DNA of 6,383 nucleotides from a virus (lineage: Duplodnaviria; Heunggongvirae; Uroviricota; Caudoviricetes): the IMG/VR virus record IMGVR_UViG_2778261541_000005; one strand, 5' to 3'. A program made the position numbers and the translations under genes. Positions 1 to 6,383 of the stretch are shown here, one piece after another; position 1 is the stretch's first letter; each line of letters opens with the position of its first letter. Under the pieces are notes generated by a model, which had not been told where the DNA came from, did no database searches, and saw only the letters and a list, made by a program, of their open reading frames with translations.

Positions 1-70
1 AGATACCTGTATAAATAACCGGTAACTGTCAGATCAGGTCTGAGCTAATACACTTAAAGATATTGACCTT

Positions 71-277
71 ATGACTAAAGCGGGTCGTGTCGAGTGTCAG
101 TTGATTTTGTCCAAGCATCTAAAAGGTTTGACGCTAGATAAGGGGTCAGTGACGGTTAAGTTACAGAACGACACTGAGATAACCATACCTACAGACCCGC
201 TACCGCTAAATGATGGAACATCAATCTTTGAAATTGCTGAGAAAAATCTATTAAAGATAGACGGTTTTCAGTTGTAA
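71..277 (+). CDS. hypothetical small protein (68 aa), convergent to the tail genes
   Basis: ATG at 71 is the first start after an in-frame TGA at 41-43; TAA at 275-277 is followed directly by a strong intrinsic terminator. No obvious Shine-Dalgarno upstream. No family recognised. Confidence 0.4.
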   Translation: MTKAGRVECQLILSKHLKGLTLDKGSVTVKLQNDTEITIPTDPLPLNDGTSIFEIAEKNLLKIDGFQL

Positions 278-310: not shown

Positions 311-1087
311 CTAGTAAGTGCCGCGCTTGTTAGGATTCACACCGTACTTTCTCAGCGCTCTACCCGTCCCGCTATTAAGCACCTTTGAAGCCTGAGCGTT
401 AGCTGCATCTGTGAAGGTACTTTCACCATTCTTGACGCTGACGCTCTTAGAACATGCTACACGGGCTTTTAACGCTTCATCTGATAGCTCGCTTGCCGAA
501 TAGCTAAATAGCTCTTTGCAAGTCAACATAGGGCTTCCAAGGCTCGTTGTAGTATTGCCAGTGTTCTTCTTAGAAGTTGTTCCACCGTCATTTGTTGTAG
601 TGGCTTTACCAGTAGCCGCACTAATATCAGTCTGTCCAACTACAGCTTTAAATTCCACACCTTGGAAAGTCATCTGAATACGAAGACCATTAGAGATAGT
701 GTGCTCTTTAGAAGCTTTAAACTGTGTAATCACTGAGTCAGTGATAGAGATTCCATCTTTAGCAACTACGGTGATAAGCTGCTTCTGGTCTCGCCATTGT
801 TCAACCGTAGAAATAAAGGTTTCTACAAGTTGCCCTTGTCTGGTTAATAGAACTGAACCTGTCGAATCAATAACTACGACGCCACTAATAGAGATAGTCT
901 TAGGTGCTCTCTGAACGTTATCAGTGATAGTTTGCCCTGATTGCATAGCCTGAGTTGTCACCATCATCGGTGAGTCATAGTCCATCTGTTCAGTAGCTGT
1001 TAAGGCAAGAAAAGATTCTACATTATCTCTAAGGTGAAAATAGATACCATCTTTACCTGAGTATCTAATTTGCTTTGTGTCAAACAT
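311..1087 (-). CDS. putative tail structural protein, distal-tail-protein-like (258 aa), with a Thr/Gly/Asn-rich linker and a C-terminal extension
   Basis: ATG at 1087 preceded by an AGGAA Shine-Dalgarno. First gene downstream of the tape measure gene, and about the size expected for a distal tail protein. Low-complexity linker [20 protein letters not shown] separates an N-terminal body of roughly 150 aa from a C-terminal domain of roughly 70 aa. Function is inferred from position and size only. Confidence 0.6.
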
Positions 1088-1260: not shown

Positions 1261-3327
1261 TTATTCCTCTGGGTAAGCTGAGCTAATCAAGGTATCTTCC
1301 TGCATACGATTAATATGCGATGTGGTTCTTTCATCAATAACCTTTCCATCAAGTACCGTCTGAGTTGTGATATTGATTGTCTGAGGCTGAATATTTACTG
1401 ACGGCTTGATAACCTTTAAATCCTGTGTGAATGTTTCCACTCGACCTTTCAGAGTATTTAATGCTTCATGTGAAAACTGTGGGGCATCTTTTGATTTGCC
1501 CTGAACCATAGCCCATAAAACAGCGGCTAAAGAGTTCATGTCACCAGTCAATGCTTGGTCTGTGGGTTCCACCTTTGACCTTACAACTTTATCAATTGGA
1601 TTATCTGACTTACTCATCTGACGTTCATAGAACGGTTTGACAATGGCATTAATCACATCAGTTGTCATACCGACAATCATTACTCTGGTAATTGCATCAG
1701 CTACAGATAATTTTCCTTTACCACCTTCAACACTACCGGAACGTGAATTAATTCTTCCTGCTGCTGTATTTGCTACATTTCCAAGCGTGGAAATAGCCCT
1801 AATTAAGCTCCAGATGCCACCTACAGCACCAATACCAGACCTTACAGCGACAATACCAGCAAGTCCCTTTAATGCACTTAACAGGCCATTTGCGATACCA
1901 TCAGCTACAGCTTTTTGAGTGTCATTTAATTCTCTGTAAGCAAGGGTCACTCTGTCAAAGAATCCCTGCACTCGGTAGCTAATCGTGGTTAAATCATCAA
2001 TACCGTTTGACATACTTTTCATCAAGTCGCCAAAATGTTCACCAAGATTTTTAGATTGACCACCTAGTGAATTAAGTAAATTAGTCAGTGACCTTGTAAA
2101 ATCTACAAGACCTTCCTGTGAACCATCGAACATTAAGGCCAGATTATTGTTCCATGAATTACTTAAGCGGCCTAACTGCGTCTGAGTAGAGTTAATAATC
2201 TTTTCCCATCCACCAGCTTTATCAATCATCCTTCCCATTTCAGCGGATACTTTAGGGAGAACATCTTTAGAAAGAACCTTACCGTCTTTCATGGCCTTGT
2301 CTAATTCTTCCGTAGTCATCCCAAGGCTTCTGGCAAATAACTGAAAAGCACCTGCCATTCTGTCACCTAATTGACCGCGTAGTTCTTCAGCCTGAATCTT
2401 TCCTTTAGAAGCCATCTGTTCGAAAGCTTTTAGAATCCCATTAATTTCATCAGTGCTTAAACCCATTAATCTGGATGTACCAATCACATTACTAAATAGG
2501 GATTCTTTCTGGCCTGCATCCATATCACCAGCACCAGCGGAAAACTTAGCAAAACTGCTTAATGTTTCAATCTGGTCAACACCAGTATTATTAGCAAGAT
2601 TCTTAACAAATTCTGTAGCTCGTTTAGCACCTTCATCACCTAAAACGAATTGTGCCGCTCGTTGTGATGCTTCTTTTTTCAGACCAACTTCCATAACCTT
2701 CTTGTAAGCTTCTAAGGCTGTCTGAAAACTATAAATGGCTGTACCTGCTTTGATTGCACTTGTAGCTAATACATCCAGACTATTTGAAGCATTTTCACTG
2801 TGATTATTTTTGCTGGTGGTCTTATTAAACTTAGAAAGTGTTTCACGTAGATTTTGATTTAACTTTGCTAACTCACGATTAAAAGCTTCGTTTCCAAGTG
2901 TCTTGGATTTACTGCTTAAGTTGTAATATTGGCTCTTAAAATACTTCTCAAGCATAGGATTAAAGTCACGAAGCTTGCTCATATTCACGCTATGCGCTGC
3001 TGTGATTGCTCTGTTTCCGCTAATTCGTGGCTGTCTTGCTGCTTTAACAGTTTCTTCAACCTGAGTTTTGAACTTAAAGACCTTCGTAGATTTGGCTCTT
3101 TCCTCCAGCTTATTAAAAGTCTGGTTAATCTTCTTTTCCATATTCCCCAAAGAGGCTGTTAAATCCTTATCCATGCTCTTTGGGTTAACTTTAAACGCTC
3201 TATTCAAATTACGTTCAATTCTTTGTGCTGACTGCAAAGCTGCCTTTTCAACTCTTTGCAAGCCTTTAATAACGTTTTCATTGAAGCCTAGCTCAACAAT
3301 AAAACTATCAACTGTAAATTTGCTCAT
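1261..3327 (-). CDS. phage tail tape measure protein (688 aa)
   Basis: ATG at 3327 with an AGAGGTGA Shine-Dalgarno 8 nt upstream. Long helical, Lys/Glu/Gln-rich N-terminal region; segment ELRGQLGDRMAGAFQLFARSLGMTTEELDKAMKDGKV resembling the conserved tape-measure domain; Gly-rich hydrophobic stretch LKGLAGIVAVRSGIGAVGGIWSLIRAISTLGNVANTAAG typical of these proteins. Confidence 0.85.
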   Translation of the reverse strand: MSKFTVDSFIVELGFNENVIKGLQRVEKAALQSAQRIERNLNRAFKVNPKSMDKDLTASLGNMEKKINQTFNKLEERAKSTKVFKFKTQVEETVKAARQPRISGNRAITAAHSVNMSKLRDFNPMLEKYFKSQYYNLSSKSKTLGNEAFNRELAKLNQNLRETLSKFNKTTSKNNHSENASNSLDVLATSAIKAGTAIYSFQTALEAYKKVMEVGLKKEASQRAAQFVLGDEGAKRATEFVKNLANNTGVDQIETLSSFAKFSAGAGDMDAGQKESLFSNVIGTSRLMGLSTDEINGILKAFEQMASKGKIQAEELRGQLGDRMAGAFQLFARSLGMTTEELDKAMKDGKVLSKDVLPKVSAEMGRMIDKAGGWEKIINSTQTQLGRLSNSWNNNLALMFDGSQEGLVDFTRSLTNLLNSLGGQSKNLGEHFGDLMKSMSNGIDDLTTISYRVQGFFDRVTLAYRELNDTQKAVADGIANGLLSALKGLAGIVAVRSGIGAVGGIWSLIRAISTLGNVANTAAGRINSRSGSVEGGKGKLSVADAITRVMIVGMTTDVINAIVKPFYERQMSKSDNPIDKVVRSKVEPTDQALTGDMNSLAAVLWAMVQGKSKDAPQFSHEALNTLKGRVETFTQDLKVIKPSVNIQPQTINITTQTVLDGKVIDERTTSHINRMQEDTLISSAYPEE

Positions 3328-3446: not shown

Positions 3447-3650
3447 TTACCTAACCAGATAATAATTACCATCTTCACCGACAATCTGACAATCACTTGG
3501 TAATTTATCAAGACACCATTTGGCTATTTTCCTGATTCTATTCTTTTGCTTAGAGGTGGATGATTTGATTCGTTTTGGTTTGTTGGGTTGTTCTTTCAGT
3601 CGTTCACTAATTGCTTTAATAAGCTCATAGCGTTCTGTTAAATCAAACAT
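3447..3650 (-). CDS. hypothetical basic small protein (67 aa)
   Basis: ATG at 3650 with a GAGGTG Shine-Dalgarno; 24 nt after the stop of the upstream gene. Lys/Arg-rich centre (PNKPKRIKSSTSKQKNRIRKIAK) suggests nucleic-acid binding. No family recognised. Confidence 0.6.
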   Translation of the reverse strand: MFDLTERYELIKAISERLKEQPNKPKRIKSSTSKQKNRIRKIAKWCLDKLPSDCQIVGEDGNYYLVR

Positions 3651-3674: not shown

Positions 3675-4385
3675 TCAAAGTGCCTTGCTATACTTCTGAG
3701 AAATCTTAGTAAGCTGCTCAATATCAGCCTGCATAGCAATCTTCTTCTGCGTTTCATAGTCACTGATTAGTTGCTTCATAGCTCTAAGCTGGTTAGCAAG
3801 CTCTTGCTTAAATCTGTTTAATTTTTTGCTATGACGCTCAAGTAGATTCTTTTCAGCTAACTGACAAATCTCTTCATCTGTTTTATCAGACAGTAAAATA
3901 TATGAACCTGTACCGCGTGAAGCTGGTCTAACATCAATTAAACGGAATCCTTCAGGGATGTTTTGAAGAACTTTTGAGATATTCTCTCTTGCTGTACCAA
4001 AACCATCATTATCTTCAACTGAGTAATATACGAATGGATTTTGTCTAATTTCCACTTCAATATCAAAATCAGTTGGCTTCTCAGTCTCTTCAAAGTTCTT
4101 CACATTGTCGTAAGCGTCATCTAGTCTAAGGCGCTGTGCTTTTAGCAGTGGGTAATATTCACGCTCAAGCTCAAGTAGTGCTTCAGTTTTGCAGATATCA
4201 GGCATTTCTTGAGGCTCAGGGGCTACAAAGGTAATTTGCTTTGGTGACATCTTTAACTCTTGCTCAAGTGCAATTCTTTCATCGTGTTCTTTACGCTGAA
4301 TAGTGATAGCTGGATGTTCACCCTGTGGTGACCAGTCACCGAAGCTATCAATCACTTTGCCATTAATGTAAATATCATTTGTCAT
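3675..4385 (-). CDS. hypothetical acidic protein (236 aa) with predicted coiled-coil C-terminus
   Basis: The ORF track starts this frame at a GTG at 4430; the ATG at 4385 is preferred because AGAGGA lies 6 nt upstream. Strongly acidic; C-terminal heptad-like segment ELANQLRAMKQLISDYETQKKIAMQADIEQLTKISQKY. No family recognised. Confidence 0.7.
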   Translation of the reverse strand: MTNDIYINGKVIDSFGDWSPQGEHPAITIQRKEHDERIALEQELKMSPKQITFVAPEPQEMPDICKTEALLELEREYYPLLKAQRLRLDDAYDNVKNFEETEKPTDFDIEVEIRQNPFVYYSVEDNDGFGTARENISKVLQNIPEGFRLIDVRPASRGTGSYILLSDKTDEEICQLAEKNLLERHSKKLNRFKQELANQLRAMKQLISDYETQKKIAMQADIEQLTKISQKYSKAL

Positions 4386-4393
4386 TGTTTTTC

Positions 4394-4496
4394 CTCTTCT
4401 AAGTAGGTATTCAGTTTTTAAAAAGCACACCTGACAGCCTACGAACTTAGAAGAGACTTAAAAGCGTTTGCCAAGTATGCTTTTTAAAAACTGAAT
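4394..4496 (-). promoter_or_regulatory. structured 5' leader of gene 3675..4385: 19-bp perfect inverted repeat plus 11-bp anti-Shine-Dalgarno-like repeat
   Basis: ATTCAGTTTTTAAAAAGCA (4409-4427) is the exact reverse complement of TGCTTTTTAAAAACTGAAT (4478-4496), with a 50-bp spacer. Inside the spacer, ACTTAGAAGAG (4445-4455) is the exact reverse complement of CTCTTCTAAGT (4394-4404), which overlaps the GAGG core (4393-4396) of the Shine-Dalgarno. Confidence 0.5.
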
Positions 4497-4597
4497 GACC
4501 CTAGATAATTTCTTATAAAGGGCCATTCATAAGGTGAAGAAATTAAAAGAACATCTAAAGGATTCAATAATGAATTGAATGAACAAAGACTTTTGAG

Positions 4598-4626: not shown

Positions 4627-4720
4627 GTAGCGAAAAGCATTGCACCTTTCCAACTCAGAATATCCATCCATCGGATTATTGAAAGAAAAATAAGAGAGAA
4701 TTGCTCTCCCTATATATACA

Positions 4721-4749
4721 ATTATGTCATGCTCAAGGTTATTTGTCAA
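4721..4749 (-). promoter_or_regulatory. putative sigma70-type promoter (TTGACA-17 bp-CATAAT), minus strand
   Basis: On the minus strand: perfect -35 TTGACA (4749-4744), 17-bp spacer, -10 CATAAT (4726-4721). Sits just downstream of the peptide ORF stop (4775) and about 330 nt upstream of gene 3675..4385. Confidence 0.45.
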
Positions 4750-4774: not shown

Positions 4775-4840
4775 TTATACTTTAATAGATGCACCTGCAA
4801 TCATACCAATCAATACAAAACAGATAATCACCAATTCCAT
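4775..4840 (-). CDS. candidate small hydrophobic peptide (21 aa, MELVIICFVLIGMIAGASIKV), not in the ORF track
   Basis: ATG at 4840-4838 overlaps the TAA stop of the 109-aa gene (TAATG); GGTGGTG Shine-Dalgarno-like motif 5 nt upstream; TAA at 4777-4775. One predicted transmembrane-length hydrophobic segment. Confidence 0.3.
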   Translation of the reverse strand: MELVIICFVLIGMIAGASIKV

Positions 4841-5169
4841 TAATGCACCACCTTCGAATCCGTAACCAAAATATTGTCAGCGTACAGGATTGCTATGGCT
4901 GCCTTGAGATATTTTTCAGGGCTAACGCTGTATTTGTTCGTTTCTTCGATAATCAATCTTTTCATGTTCGAATCTGTTACAGGAAACATAAAACGCGGTT
5001 CACCAGTTTCAATTTCCTGAATAAAGTCAGAGATGTTTTCTGCATTATCAGCCATTAGCTTTAACAGCCTGTCAAAATCAATTTCCACACCTGCATCAAT
5101 GAAGCTTTGCACCATCATAGCGGTGTCGCTATCAACGAAAATCTGTAGCGGGAAGTTTAATTCTCTCAT
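4840..5169 (-). CDS. hypothetical acidic protein (109 aa)
   Basis: ATG at 5169 with an AAGGAGA Shine-Dalgarno 9 nt upstream. By my count about 19 Asp/Glu against 10 Lys/Arg. No family recognised. Confidence 0.7.
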   Translation of the reverse strand: MRELNFPLQIFVDSDTAMMVQSFIDAGVEIDFDRLLKLMADNAENISDFIQEIETGEPRFMFPVTDSNMKRLIIEETNKYSVSPEKYLKAAIAILYADNILVTDSKVVH

Positions 5170-5236
5170 TTCTTAAAATCTCCTTTTTACCAGACCTCCT
5201 CAATCGCTCTGTAACGAGCTAAACAGTCTTTTTCAG

Positions 5237-5266
5237 GGGTGGCCTGTACAGTGGTATTACCCACCC
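5237..5266. repeat. GC-rich hairpin (GGGTGG / CCACCC) with palindromic CTGTACAG in the loop
   Basis: Stem 5237-5242 / 5261-5266; loop holds the perfect 8-bp palindrome CTGTACAG (5244-5251). Lies in the 179-bp gap upstream of gene 4840..5169. Confidence 0.35.
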
Positions 5267-5348
5267 TAAAATAAGATAGTTTTTTGCGTTAGAATGCGAT
5301 TGAGAGCGTCTGAGAAGCTGTTTTTCTAATTTCTCTTAAAGTCTCGGA

Positions 5349-5549
5349 CTACCAATAGCCTAATTCCACTTTATTTCGTTCAAACCATTCCGCTGTAACT
5401 GCTGTTTTCAGTGTTTCATTTGGGCTGGTGGCATGAATGAAGATATCTTTTGGATTGTGAATATCACCGAAACAATCTTCTTTGATGAGCAAGTCTGATA
5501 CATGCTTAATCATTTTATCTGTCAAATATTCGAATTTAATACATAACAT
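5349..5549 (-). CDS. hypothetical protein (66 aa), third gene of a coupled operon
   Basis: The ORF track starts at a TTG at 5582, overlapping the upstream gene by 34 nt. The ATG at 5549 is preferred: it overlaps the upstream TAA stop as TAATG and has GGAGA upstream. The start remains uncertain. Confidence 0.55.
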   Translation of the reverse strand: MLCIKFEYLTDKMIKHVSDLLIKEDCFGDIHNPKDIFIHATSPNETLKTAVTAEWFERNKVELGYW

Positions 5550-5821
5550 TAAATCTCCAGTAGTAAATTGTTTGGGTGGCAATTTCTTTTATTACCATCC
5601 CTGAAGATAATCTTTTTAGTTGCCTGAACTTCATGATGCAAAAACCAGATGACATACTTCAGATAATAATCACGAGTGCCATAACGAATCATTGGATTAC
5701 CGTAAGCGTCATCTCTTGTCTTAACTTCTCCGCCATCAATCCATTCAAGCATTCCTGTCTCATAATTAATCGTGAAGTAAGTTGCAAAGAACCGTTTAAT
5801 ATCATCTCGCCATTGCTTCAT
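5549..5821 (-). CDS. HNH-like small protein (90 aa), HNH_3/AP2-like with an apparently degenerate catalytic motif
   Basis: ATG at 5821 with a GGAGG Shine-Dalgarno 7 nt upstream. C-terminal IWFLHH...IIFRDGNKRNCHPNNLL resembles the HNH_3 core (H-x-DGN...NN...NL), but the His that normally precedes DGN reads F-R. N-terminal YFTINYETGMLEW resembles the Y-x-V-S-N-x-G element of that family. By-eye comparison only. Confidence 0.6.
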   Translation of the reverse strand: MKQWRDDIKRFFATYFTINYETGMLEWIDGGEVKTRDDAYGNPMIRYGTRDYYLKYVIWFLHHEVQATKKIIFRDGNKRNCHPNNLLLEI

Positions 5822-5823
5822 AA

Positions 5824-6102
5824 TCAGACCTCCAGAGACAGCTTGCGAAGCTTGATGCTCAATAGACGGGCAATATCAATTTTAAAGCTGTTAAGTGCCT
5901 TCAAAGTATCTAAAGCGTCCTGAGTAATTCGGATGTGTTTACGACCTTTAGAGACTGGATATTTAAGTAAATCCGACTCAGTGACTTCTTTAGCGATTGC
6001 AAGTTGCATAACAGTTTGATGAGGCAAGTTAGTCGCTCGTTTAATTCTGGTAAGCTCGTTAAAAGCTTCCTCTGAAATACGGGTTAGAGTGTGTTTATTC
6101 AT
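5824..6102 (-). CDS. putative DNA-binding protein with two ribbon-helix-helix-like repeats (92 aa)
   Basis: The ORF track starts at a TTG at 6201; the ATG at 6102 is preferred because GGAGGA lies 9 nt upstream. TLTRIS-EEAFNELTRIKRATN-LP-HQTVMQLAIAKEV fits a beta-alpha-alpha pattern; KHIRIT-QDALDTLKALNSFK-IDIARLLSIKL repeats it. The TGA stop is 2 nt from the next gene's ATG. Confidence 0.6.
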   Translation of the reverse strand: MNKHTLTRISEEAFNELTRIKRATNLPHQTVMQLAIAKEVTESDLLKYPVSKGRKHIRITQDALDTLKALNSFKIDIARLLSIKLRKLSLEV

Positions 6103-6103
6103 T

Positions 6104-6211
6104 TTAAAATTCCTCCAAAATATACGGATCAAACTCAAAGTCTGGCTCACTTGTCGTAAGGCTGACATTTCCCATTTCCGCATGATGATTGATTGCCTCA
6201 ATAACTTTCAT
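6104..6211 (-). CDS. possible small acidic ORF (35 aa), weakly supported
   Basis: ATG at 6211 to TAA at 6106-6104, one base before the ATG of gene 5824..6102. No convincing Shine-Dalgarno, so it may be non-coding leader. Confidence 0.2.
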   Translation of the reverse strand: MKVIEAINHHAEMGNVSLTTSEPDFEFDPYILEEF

Positions 6212-6383
6212 GCAAACGGTGTTTAGGTTAGCGCAATATTTATCGCTTGGTAGCTCATGGCTTAATCGGGTCGCTTGACGCTGAAGATAATTTGTTACTG
6301 TGCTTGAGCTAATATCATCAAGACTTCGGGTAGTGACTCCAACTTACTGATAGTGTTTTATGTTCAGATAATGCCCGATGACC

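Follow-up and report, generated by a model that had tools for sequence, protein, structure and literature searches.

The window analysed here, a 6,383-nucleotide stretch filed under Caudoviricetes (IMG/VR record IMGVR_UViG_2778261541_000005), is the whole of the 6383-bp draft contig NLNJ01000125.1 of GCA_002229695.1 and holds part of a chromosomal island found in Escherichia coli. Three small adjacent genes in it, designated A, B and C, were followed up. The reading we favour, with a probability of roughly 0.55, is that gene A encodes a DNA-binding regulator of the island and that B and C make up an exchangeable, non-catalytic accessory cassette beside it; the functional part of this reading draws on fold and context. 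Taken singly, the proteins fall into fold classes already known, ribbon-helix-helix (RHH) for A and HNH_3 for B, and the genes are of value chiefly because they lead to an island family that has not been characterised.

As a preliminary description of this DNA had it, the three genes lie on the minus strand with a 2-nt gap between A and B (TGA at 5826-5824, ATG at 5821-5819) and a TAATG overlap between the stop of B and the start of C (5551-5547). The strong Shine-Dalgarno sequences attributed to them could also be read: GGAGG at 6116-6112, 9 nt ahead of the ATG of A, GGAGG at 5833-5829, 7 nt ahead of that of B, and GGAG at 5558-5555, 5 nt ahead of that of C. Given the gap and the overlap, translation of A, B and C is probably coupled. 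Two other points of that description, an operon reaching to position 6211 and consisting of three genes, had to be revised. Gene A starts at 6102; position 6211 is wrong as its start, the ATG there being in frame with the preceding gene (p184), and the homologues of A are 92-93 aa long and begin with MNKHTL or MKNKHTL. The stop of p184 and the start of A share TAAAATG, through which these two genes are probably translationally coupled as well, and the operon contains at least five genes in the order p184-A-B-C-p109.

The open reading frames (ORFs) of A, B and C were also called in the source contig, and their lengths are kept across many alleles. Ratios of non-synonymous to synonymous substitution (dN/dS) were calculated by the Nei-Gojobori method across the fetched loci (distinct alleles: 15 of A, 8 of B, 10 of C, 11 of p109 and 5 of B', a relative of B described below), and amounted to 0.15 for A, 0.16 for B, 0.12 for C (mean pairwise dS 0.96), 0.25 for p109 and 0.04 for B'. 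The ORF calls, the kept lengths and the ratios of 0.12-0.16 indicate that A, B and C are real genes under purifying selection and not chance ORFs.

Gene A and the variable slot behind it

Gene A is represented by 91 protein clusters with 64-93% identity from Escherichia, Salmonella and Citrobacter, its length being conserved throughout. An AlphaFold2 (AF2) model built on an 18-sequence alignment (pLDDT 91, pTM 0.83) placed beta-strands at residues 4-10 and 54-60 and alpha-helices at 11-24, 28-36, 42-47, 61-70 and 77-91, giving beta-alpha-alpha modules whose strands pair in a two-stranded antiparallel sheet, the arrangement by which the protein was assigned to the RHH fold. In the model gene A is shown as a single chain with two RHH repeats, predicted to fold as an intramolecular pseudo-dimer. 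The basic and polar residues H4, T5 and R8, and R54, H56 and R58, of the two strands are invariant among the 18 homologues. The two beta-alpha-alpha repeats proposed earlier are well supported by this topology and by Foldseek, in which the best matches of the model were chains of the F-plasmid relaxosome (identified as TraY by sequence search), DndE and AvtR.

The proposed RHH likeness did not extend to sequence profiles. Nothing significant was found for gene A in Pfam, PHROGs, NCBIfam or the PDB sequences, where matches were by chance only; no Pfam RHH family matched at E<=1, and the sole weak signal was to DndE (PF08870, E 0.064, 14 bits against a cut-off of 25; TIGR03184, E 0.0022, 18.4 bits against 71.85). 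TraY (PDB 9f0x-9f12) has the same single-chain double-RHH architecture, but sequence identity is just 5%, TraY has 131 aa compared to the 92 aa of gene A, and gene A lies in a phage-related island with a serine recombinase and without a nearby relaxase, oriT or conjugation genes. Membership of the TraY family was rejected for want of a PF05509 match and of a relaxase or oriT context, and membership of the DndE family because the scores fall far under the cut-offs and no dnd genes occur in any locus; the architecture is common to gene A and DndE (PDB 4lrv, 7x4e, 5wtu), and the islands carry no dndB, dndC or dndD. Further single-chain double-RHH DNA-binding proteins of this kind are AvtR from an archaeal lipothrixvirus (4hv0), single-chain Arc (1u9p) and VirC2 (2rh3), among which AvtR, a viral transcription regulator, provides the functional analogy that we favour.

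Judged by its modelled fold and its setting, gene A most likely binds island DNA via its two-stranded beta-sheet. It would in this way regulate transcription or serve the island as an architectural or DNA-processing accessory factor, with the promoter-palindrome at 4749-4693 and the hairpin elements described below as candidate targets. With gene A, the few single-chain double-RHH proteins (TraY, DndE, AvtR, VirC2) are joined by a family for which Pfam has no model.

Gene order was inspected in 15 related loci, in addition to this contig and L007, its copy in the database. Gene A directly follows p184 in 15/15, including every locus that spans the operon, and is a backbone gene of the island. 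The slot directly behind it was seen with five different contents, namely B-C (this window, L008, L001, L017 and L019), C'-B' (L005, L006 and L012-L014), B-p128 (L002, L016 and L018), p128 alone (L004, L011 and L015) and B followed by a C-like ORF with 40% identity (L009). The counts in complete E. coli genomes differ accordingly: gene A was found in 265 (identity mostly 90-95%), gene C in 268 (43 at >=90% identity and 225 at 60-80% nucleotide identity with the ORF kept), B' in 226 and gene B in 67 of 5426, all at 95-99% identity. The conserved co-occurrence of A, B and C implied by their earlier grouping was thus not seen; A is constant, and B and C form an exchangeable cassette in a variable slot and are not obligate partners of A.

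The slot gene B' encodes a 95-aa paralogue, 40% identical to B, which passes the Pfam HNH_3 threshold with 34.3 bits; it keeps the His of the HNH core (IIHRNGN) and lacks the Asp of the Asp-His pair. In most islands it is B' that comes after C. B and B' occurred together in none of the loci inspected, which suggests retention of one copy for a function. The third slot gene, p128, has a weak C-terminal helix-turn-helix (HTH) match. Gene C, as had been stated, has no recognisable family: searches of Pfam, PHROGs, NCBIfam, PADLOC and PDB sequences gave no match, nor did a tblastn search of 50,697 phage records, and it appears to be a small protein without detectable relatives outside the island family, travelling with B or B'. 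The content of the slot does not track the recombinase type or the integration site of the island, a point that speaks against B, C or p128 as the recombination directionality factor.

The preliminary description had also offered a toxin-antitoxin-like module, in which A-B or A-B-C would be of type II with the RHH protein as antitoxin and repressor. Such a module would account for an RHH gene lying immediately upstream of small genes at a spacing close enough for translational coupling. However, gene A is a self-contained double RHH without a C-terminal toxin-binding extension, it is always preceded by p184 (with the shared TAAAATG) and so is the second gene of a longer operon, and the partner behind it is swapped (B, C' or p128) while A stays, which argues against a toxin-antitoxin pair. 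With B in 67 genomes compared to 265 for A, and no match to a toxin or toxin-antitoxin hidden Markov model (HMM) in Pfam, NCBIfam or PADLOC, we consider this explanation highly improbable, and it was rejected on the variability of gene order and the lack of toxin HMM matches.

Gene B and the HNH_3 endonucleases

The HNH-like nature proposed for gene B stood in part at the level of profiles: Pfam HNH_3 (PF13392) was matched (E 7.6e-5), over positions 1-38 of 46 of the profile only, and the score of 22.7 bits is below the gathering score of 24.8. The family of gene B is small, with 10 clusters obtained by a word-index search and 19 proteins at E<=1e-3 in an exhaustive HMMER search of 1.84 billion representatives; a profile made from gene B and its distant relatives reached canonical endonucleases of the HNH_3+AP2 type with an E value of 1.6e-9. 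The AF2 model (pLDDT 94) had I-HmuI as its sole real fold match in Foldseek (1u3e_M, E 2e-3, probability 1.00, TM 0.62), the next match having an E value of 0.5. Searches of PDB sequences returned chance matches only for gene B; those for A, B, C and p184 included a Fab light chain, a xylanase, ClpP and ArgR.

The FRDGN motif, in which the earlier description saw a replaced His, occupies residues 73-77 of gene B (Phe codon 5605-5603). In the profile-to-I-HmuI alignment Ile72 and Phe73 of gene B fall on Asp74 and His75 of I-HmuI, and N85 falls on Asn87; gene B ends at residue 90, four before the position (~94) that would correspond to Asn96, and thus before the helix that carries it. In I-HmuI, Asp74 and Asn96 bind metal and His75 is the general base. 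On these roles gene B would lack the general base, both metal ligands and the beta-beta-alpha-metal helix. What it retains is an N-terminal beta-sheet domain like that of I-HmuI and, of the metal motif, the first hairpin, that is, the first half of the HNH core shared with the HNH_3 endonucleases. Profile, fold and residue mapping agree on an HNH_3-like protein with Phe in place of His. The substitution is not a misreading: FRDGNKRNCHP is identical in 8/8 alleles of gene B, and distant relatives have F, Y, V, S or C at the catalytic His position.

Gene B is also without an AP2, HTH, NUMOD or other C-terminal DNA-binding domain. Since the Asp-His pair, the Asn helix and AP2 are all missing, we infer that gene B is unable to cleave DNA by the canonical HNH mechanism, and most likely it is a small non-catalytic accessory factor which binds DNA or a partner protein; that a nuclease fold has been repurposed for binding, as first suggested, is a reasonable inference. 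The lack of catalytic residues and of AP2, HTH or NUMOD domains led us to reject gene B as a free-standing homing endonuclease proper. A packaging-associated HNH (HK97 gp74-like) was likewise rejected: no terminase or portal gene was found in the window or in any related island examined, and the preliminary description was right that neither is adjacent, the downstream genes being those for a tape-measure protein (TMP) and a Dit-like tube initiator.

Gene B has a relative within the island family itself. Many islands carry, in a variable right arm, a gene for a 174-aa HNH-AP2 protein which has the active-site residues and a DNA-binding domain; it is a homing endonuclease of an ordinary type that T4-like phages have as well. 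Along their entire length, B and B' each share 29-31% identity with the first 100 residues of the HNH-AP2 protein (29% for gene B), and gene B is a truncated paralogue of this homing endonuclease that the island itself encodes. In gene B, then, a homing-endonuclease scaffold appears to have been kept without its active site, under purifying selection in the alleles compared (dN/dS 0.16).

The nearest relatives of gene B outside the Enterobacteriaceae (P0107, P0108, P0111 and P0115, of ~290 aa, and P0112 and P0114) consist of two tandem HNH_3-like domains. Every copy of the domain in these proteins has F, Y, S or C for the catalytic His, with the motif [FY]RDGN, and the group looks to be a small clade, so far without annotation, of HNH_3 derivatives that are dead as nucleases. 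Among the database clusters of gene B itself, P0002, P0004, P0006, P0007 and P0009 have either a frameshift after residue ~70 or a deletion fusion to C or p128; judging from these variants, gene B is decaying in some lineages.

Exchange of the cassette between islands

Nucleotide diversity was measured in sliding windows along the loci of the B' type, and the loci of the B-C type show the same pattern. Values were 0.2-0.31 in p184 (0.2-0.35 overall), 0.07-0.14 in A, ~0.21 in p109 (0.15-0.23 overall) and 0.3-0.44 in p236, the gene following p109, while the C'-B' cassette together with most of the ~157-nt intergenic region downstream of it gave 0.00-0.04, rising to 0.08 at the p109 edge. The block of low diversity (5170-5821 of the window, 8543-9198 of L005 and equivalents; 0.00-0.06 overall, 0.08 at the p109 edge) is sharply bounded, close to the 3' end of gene A on one side and to the beginning of p109 on the other, and diversity in the slot is 5-10 times below that of the flanks. 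Within the loci that carry B, dS was 0.29 for A, 0.09 for B, 0.14 for C and 0.49 for p109. A low-diversity cassette amid diverged backbones indicates that the cassette moved recently between backbones.

A trace of such movement is present in the window. The segment 5350-5170 is 97.8% identical to 8723-8543 of L005, an O157 island in which B' occupies 8699-8986, the match taking in the last 25 nt of B'. This 25-nt scar of B' joined to C shows that the order A-B-C goes back to an ancestor with A-C-B', which lost B' and gained B. The block of low diversity and the alternative insertion positions would fit recent horizontal spread of a free-standing homing endonuclease gene; a selective sweep or ordinary recombination would leave the same signature. 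Low diversity of a cassette set in diverged backbones makes this a clean natural example of localised exchange beside nuclease-derived genes.

These data bear on a second explanation, in which the cassette of C with B or B' is selfish, either as an element akin to free-standing homing endonuclease genes or as what is left of one in decay, with B' or the HNH-AP2 protein driving gene conversion into related islands and B as a nuclease-dead relic. It would fit the sharp block, which lies exactly over the cassette and the downstream intergenic region between highly diverged backbones, the HNH-like genes at alternative positions either side of C, the B' deletion scar, the existence of frameshifted and fused variants of B, the greater uniformity of B in all 67 genomes than of A, and the presence in the same island of a canonical homing endonuclease to which B and B' are paralogous. 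Yet B has remained intact with an invariant motif and a dN/dS of 0.16 despite having neither catalytic and metal-binding residues nor a sequence-specific DNA-binding domain, and B' is more constrained still (0.04) though it lacks the Asp of the Asp-His pair. The mutual exclusion of B and B' in the loci examined looks like functional replacement and not random invasion, and the block also spans C and a structured intergenic element, selection on which could have driven a sweep. We regard homing as an unlikely explanation of the cassette.

Rapid turnover of a cassette in a fixed slot of a mobile element would equally be expected if B and C (and p128) were cargo for phage interference or anti-defence in the hotspot of a satellite-like island, acting on an infecting helper or target phage and not on DNA of the island itself, for instance by covering the target sites of nucleases or attaching to a phage protein. 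In keeping with this, the pair of TMP and tube-initiator genes is all that the island has in common with virulent Felix O1-like phages, and p184, A, B, C, p109, p236 and p67 have no homologue in 50,697 phage genomes. Against it, nine island proteins gave zero matches to 5027 PADLOC defence models, the cassette proteins are tiny and without recognisable effector domains, and a regulatory role fits equally well for a slot placed inside a tightly packed operon beside a DNA-binding regulator. Cargo of this kind is distinctly unlikely in our estimation.

The favoured reading, with A as regulator and B and C as accessory cassette, has to be held against several observations. For gene A, there is no significant sequence-profile match to any RHH family, DndE alone appearing far below its cut-offs, and DNA binding is deduced from fold and context only, the binding site being a candidate. 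Gene B is possibly a decaying relic and not a functional protein, given that five of its database clusters are frameshifted or fused, and its low diversity (dS 0.09) leaves its dN/dS with little power. The islands with p128 only have no HNH-like gene at all, so an HNH-like protein is dispensable for the island. Finally, gene order is known from 15 loci only, and B and B' together occupy 304 places compared to 277 for A, a mismatch which means that some arrangements remain unseen.

The island, its control elements and the contig

DNA related to the window was detected in 490 of the 5426 complete E. coli genomes, O157:H7 among them, and was always chromosomal. The islands are 11-13 kb long, have a large serine recombinase, which is present in the relatives and truncated in this contig, and are of two types: the first lies between tonB and yciI (L001, L002 and L004) and the second inside yecE, for example in O157:H7 (L005, L006 and L013), with a recombinase 33-34% identical to that of the first. 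The yecE island of O157:H7 may be the 'SpLE2' of strain Sakai. The order of the backbone is variable right arm, p184, A, slot, p109, p236, p67, TMP, tube initiator and, convergent to these, the serine recombinase. The backbone is mosaic from island to island (identities of 42-97% for TMP, 25-100% for p236 and 46-95% for p67), as is also the case for the highly mosaic backbone genes of phages and satellites. A literature search on tonB/yciI, yecE and satellites together with Felix O1 or tape measure found no description of the island.

Taken together (946 aa), TMP and the protein following it align over 99% of their length, with 39% identity and in unchanged order, to the TMP of Felix O1-like phages and the product of the gene after it (247 records); in its DNA, part of the Dit-like gene shares 77% identity with phages of the phiSUSP1 type. 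In the structure paper on phage Bas63, gp17 is the TMP and gp18 the tube initiator (PMC12609058), by which the gene after the island TMP is presumably a tube initiator. The TMP and tube-initiator pair are the only island genes in common with Felix O1-like phages; a concatenate of p184, A, B, C, p109, p251 and p67 had no tblastn match in the 50,697 phage records.

Taken as a whole, the island resembles satellites of the PLE and PICI type in being a small chromosomal element with site-specific insertion and a mosaic, modular backbone; a large serine recombinase is also a feature of PLE, and satellites likewise have a few genes homologous to a virulent myovirus. Unlike PLE and PICI satellites, the island, which is known from its genes alone, has no recognisable replication, capsid-remodelling or packaging genes. 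To our knowledge, no described satellite family (P4-like, PICI, cfPICI or PLE) carries tape-measure and tube-initiator genes. It is possible, if on balance rather doubtful, that the island is an element of a kind not described before, which parasitises virulent Felix O1-like myoviruses or interferes with the assembly of their tails. The p184-A-slot operon would then be a control and hijack module in which A switches on the TMP and tube-initiator operon, and B or B' with C tunes the interaction with particular helper phages or shields the island from homing nucleases of these helpers. Were this so, the island would be a tractable E. coli counterpart of the Vibrio PLE-ICP1 system and would have relevance for phage-host range, Felix O1-like phages being candidates for phage therapy. 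The more valuable result is in any event the context, with A, B and C marking the control region of an uncharacterised and highly mosaic island family.

Two kinds of candidate control element were identified in the window. The first is a sigma-70-like promoter at 4749-4721 (TTGACA, a 17-nt spacer and CATAAT, with TG; 11/12 consensus matches), directly 3' of which is the palindrome or hairpin GGGAGAGCAATTCTCTC. It lies between p109 and p236, at the boundary of the A-B-C-p109 operon and the p236-p67-TMP-tube-initiator operon. Promoter and palindrome are kept in island variants that are just 66-79% identical, and the T-run after the hairpin is not kept. This may be a regulated promoter of the tail-gene operon, controlled by an operator or by antitermination; the hairpin as a target of Q-type antitermination is a speculative suggestion, the T-run being unconserved in the relatives. 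In the intact relative L008, divergent promoter-like sites are located ~40-115 bp upstream of p184. The separate promoter upstream of p236 and the promoter-like sites upstream of p184 place A, B and C in an upstream, non-structural operon.

The second element is a hairpin-forming sequence in the intergenic region between C and p109, as stable as which were 0/200 shuffled sequences. Its arms of 21-34 nt are conserved and its loop is variable. The element is part of the low-diversity block of the cassette, with a nucleotide diversity of 0.00-0.08. Several relatives have a second copy upstream of p184 (4367-4463 in L008) with the same arms and a different loop, so that the p184-A-slot module is bracketed in them by direct copies of the hairpin. 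The element could be a protein-binding, RNA-structure or recombination site.

The features of the window are listed in Table 1; its convincing genes are all on the minus strand. At the right end of the contig the terminal part of an IS1 copy cuts p184 and has removed its 5' part, and at the left end positions 1-52, which match DNA that in IncF plasmids and a P1-like phage lies ~47 nt outside an IS1 copy, abut the remnant of the serine recombinase. Neither side of the island is therefore complete in this contig, and in consequence the A-B-C operon is without its native promoter. The p184 remnant matches the C-terminus of the intact 183-aa gene of L008 and is 64% identical to the L001 protein; p184 has no match in Pfam, NCBIfam, PADLOC or the PDB, and no family was matched by p109 in Pfam, PHROGs, NCBIfam or PADLOC.

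Table 1. Location of genes, gene remnants and other elements in the 6,383-nt window
Feature	Positions	Strand	Remarks
Terminal 55 nt of an IS1 copy	6329-6383		Right contig end; matched by megablast to IS1 of phages and plasmids and aligned with the pEC448_1 IS1 end
p184-family 3' remnant	6104-6328	-	Last 73 codons and stop, from translation; full protein 183-184 aa
Gene A	5824-6102	-	92 aa
Gene B	5549-5821	-	90 aa
Gene C	5349-5549	-	66 aa
B' remnant	5326-5350	-	Last 25 nt including the stop; overlaps the C stop codon by 2 nt
Hairpin-forming element	5192-5312	-	~120 nt, between C and p109; -52.1 kcal/mol, z -4.18
p109	4840-5169	-	109 aa; backbone gene, last of the operon, in all full-length related loci
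Sigma-70-like promoter and palindrome GGGAGAGCAATTCTCTC	4693-4749	-	Consensus scan 11/12
p236/p251	3675-4385 or 3675-4430	-	
p67	3447-3650	-	
Tape-measure protein (TMP)	1261-3327	-	688 aa; PF20155, E 2e-20
Dit-like protein (tube initiator)	311-1087	-	258 aa; PF21821, E 8.5e-18
Large serine recombinase, remnant	53-277	+	Last 75 codons

The genes p236/p251 and p67 occupy the usual place of tail-assembly chaperones, upstream of the tape-measure gene. Homologues of p236/p251 are labelled 'transposase' by RefSeq in several genomes, a label with no backing from Pfam, PHROGs, NCBIfam or PADLOC. Just upstream of the start of p236 is a 28-nt inverted repeat (4409-4496; 89% complementary, 32-nt spacer), to which plant miRNA models of Rfam gave sub-threshold matches (4405-4501) that were treated as chance.

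The right arm of L008 (2555-4700) contains the gene for the 174-aa HNH_3+AP2 protein, on the opposite strand, and ~1.5 kb without convincing ORFs, which includes an 83-nt direct repeat (2 copies, 87% identical, 94-nt spacing). The promoter-like sites upstream of p184 in this locus are arranged back to back and lie beyond the ORF-poor stretch. In the right arm of other islands an N6-adenine methyltransferase or a small resolvase/invertase is found instead.

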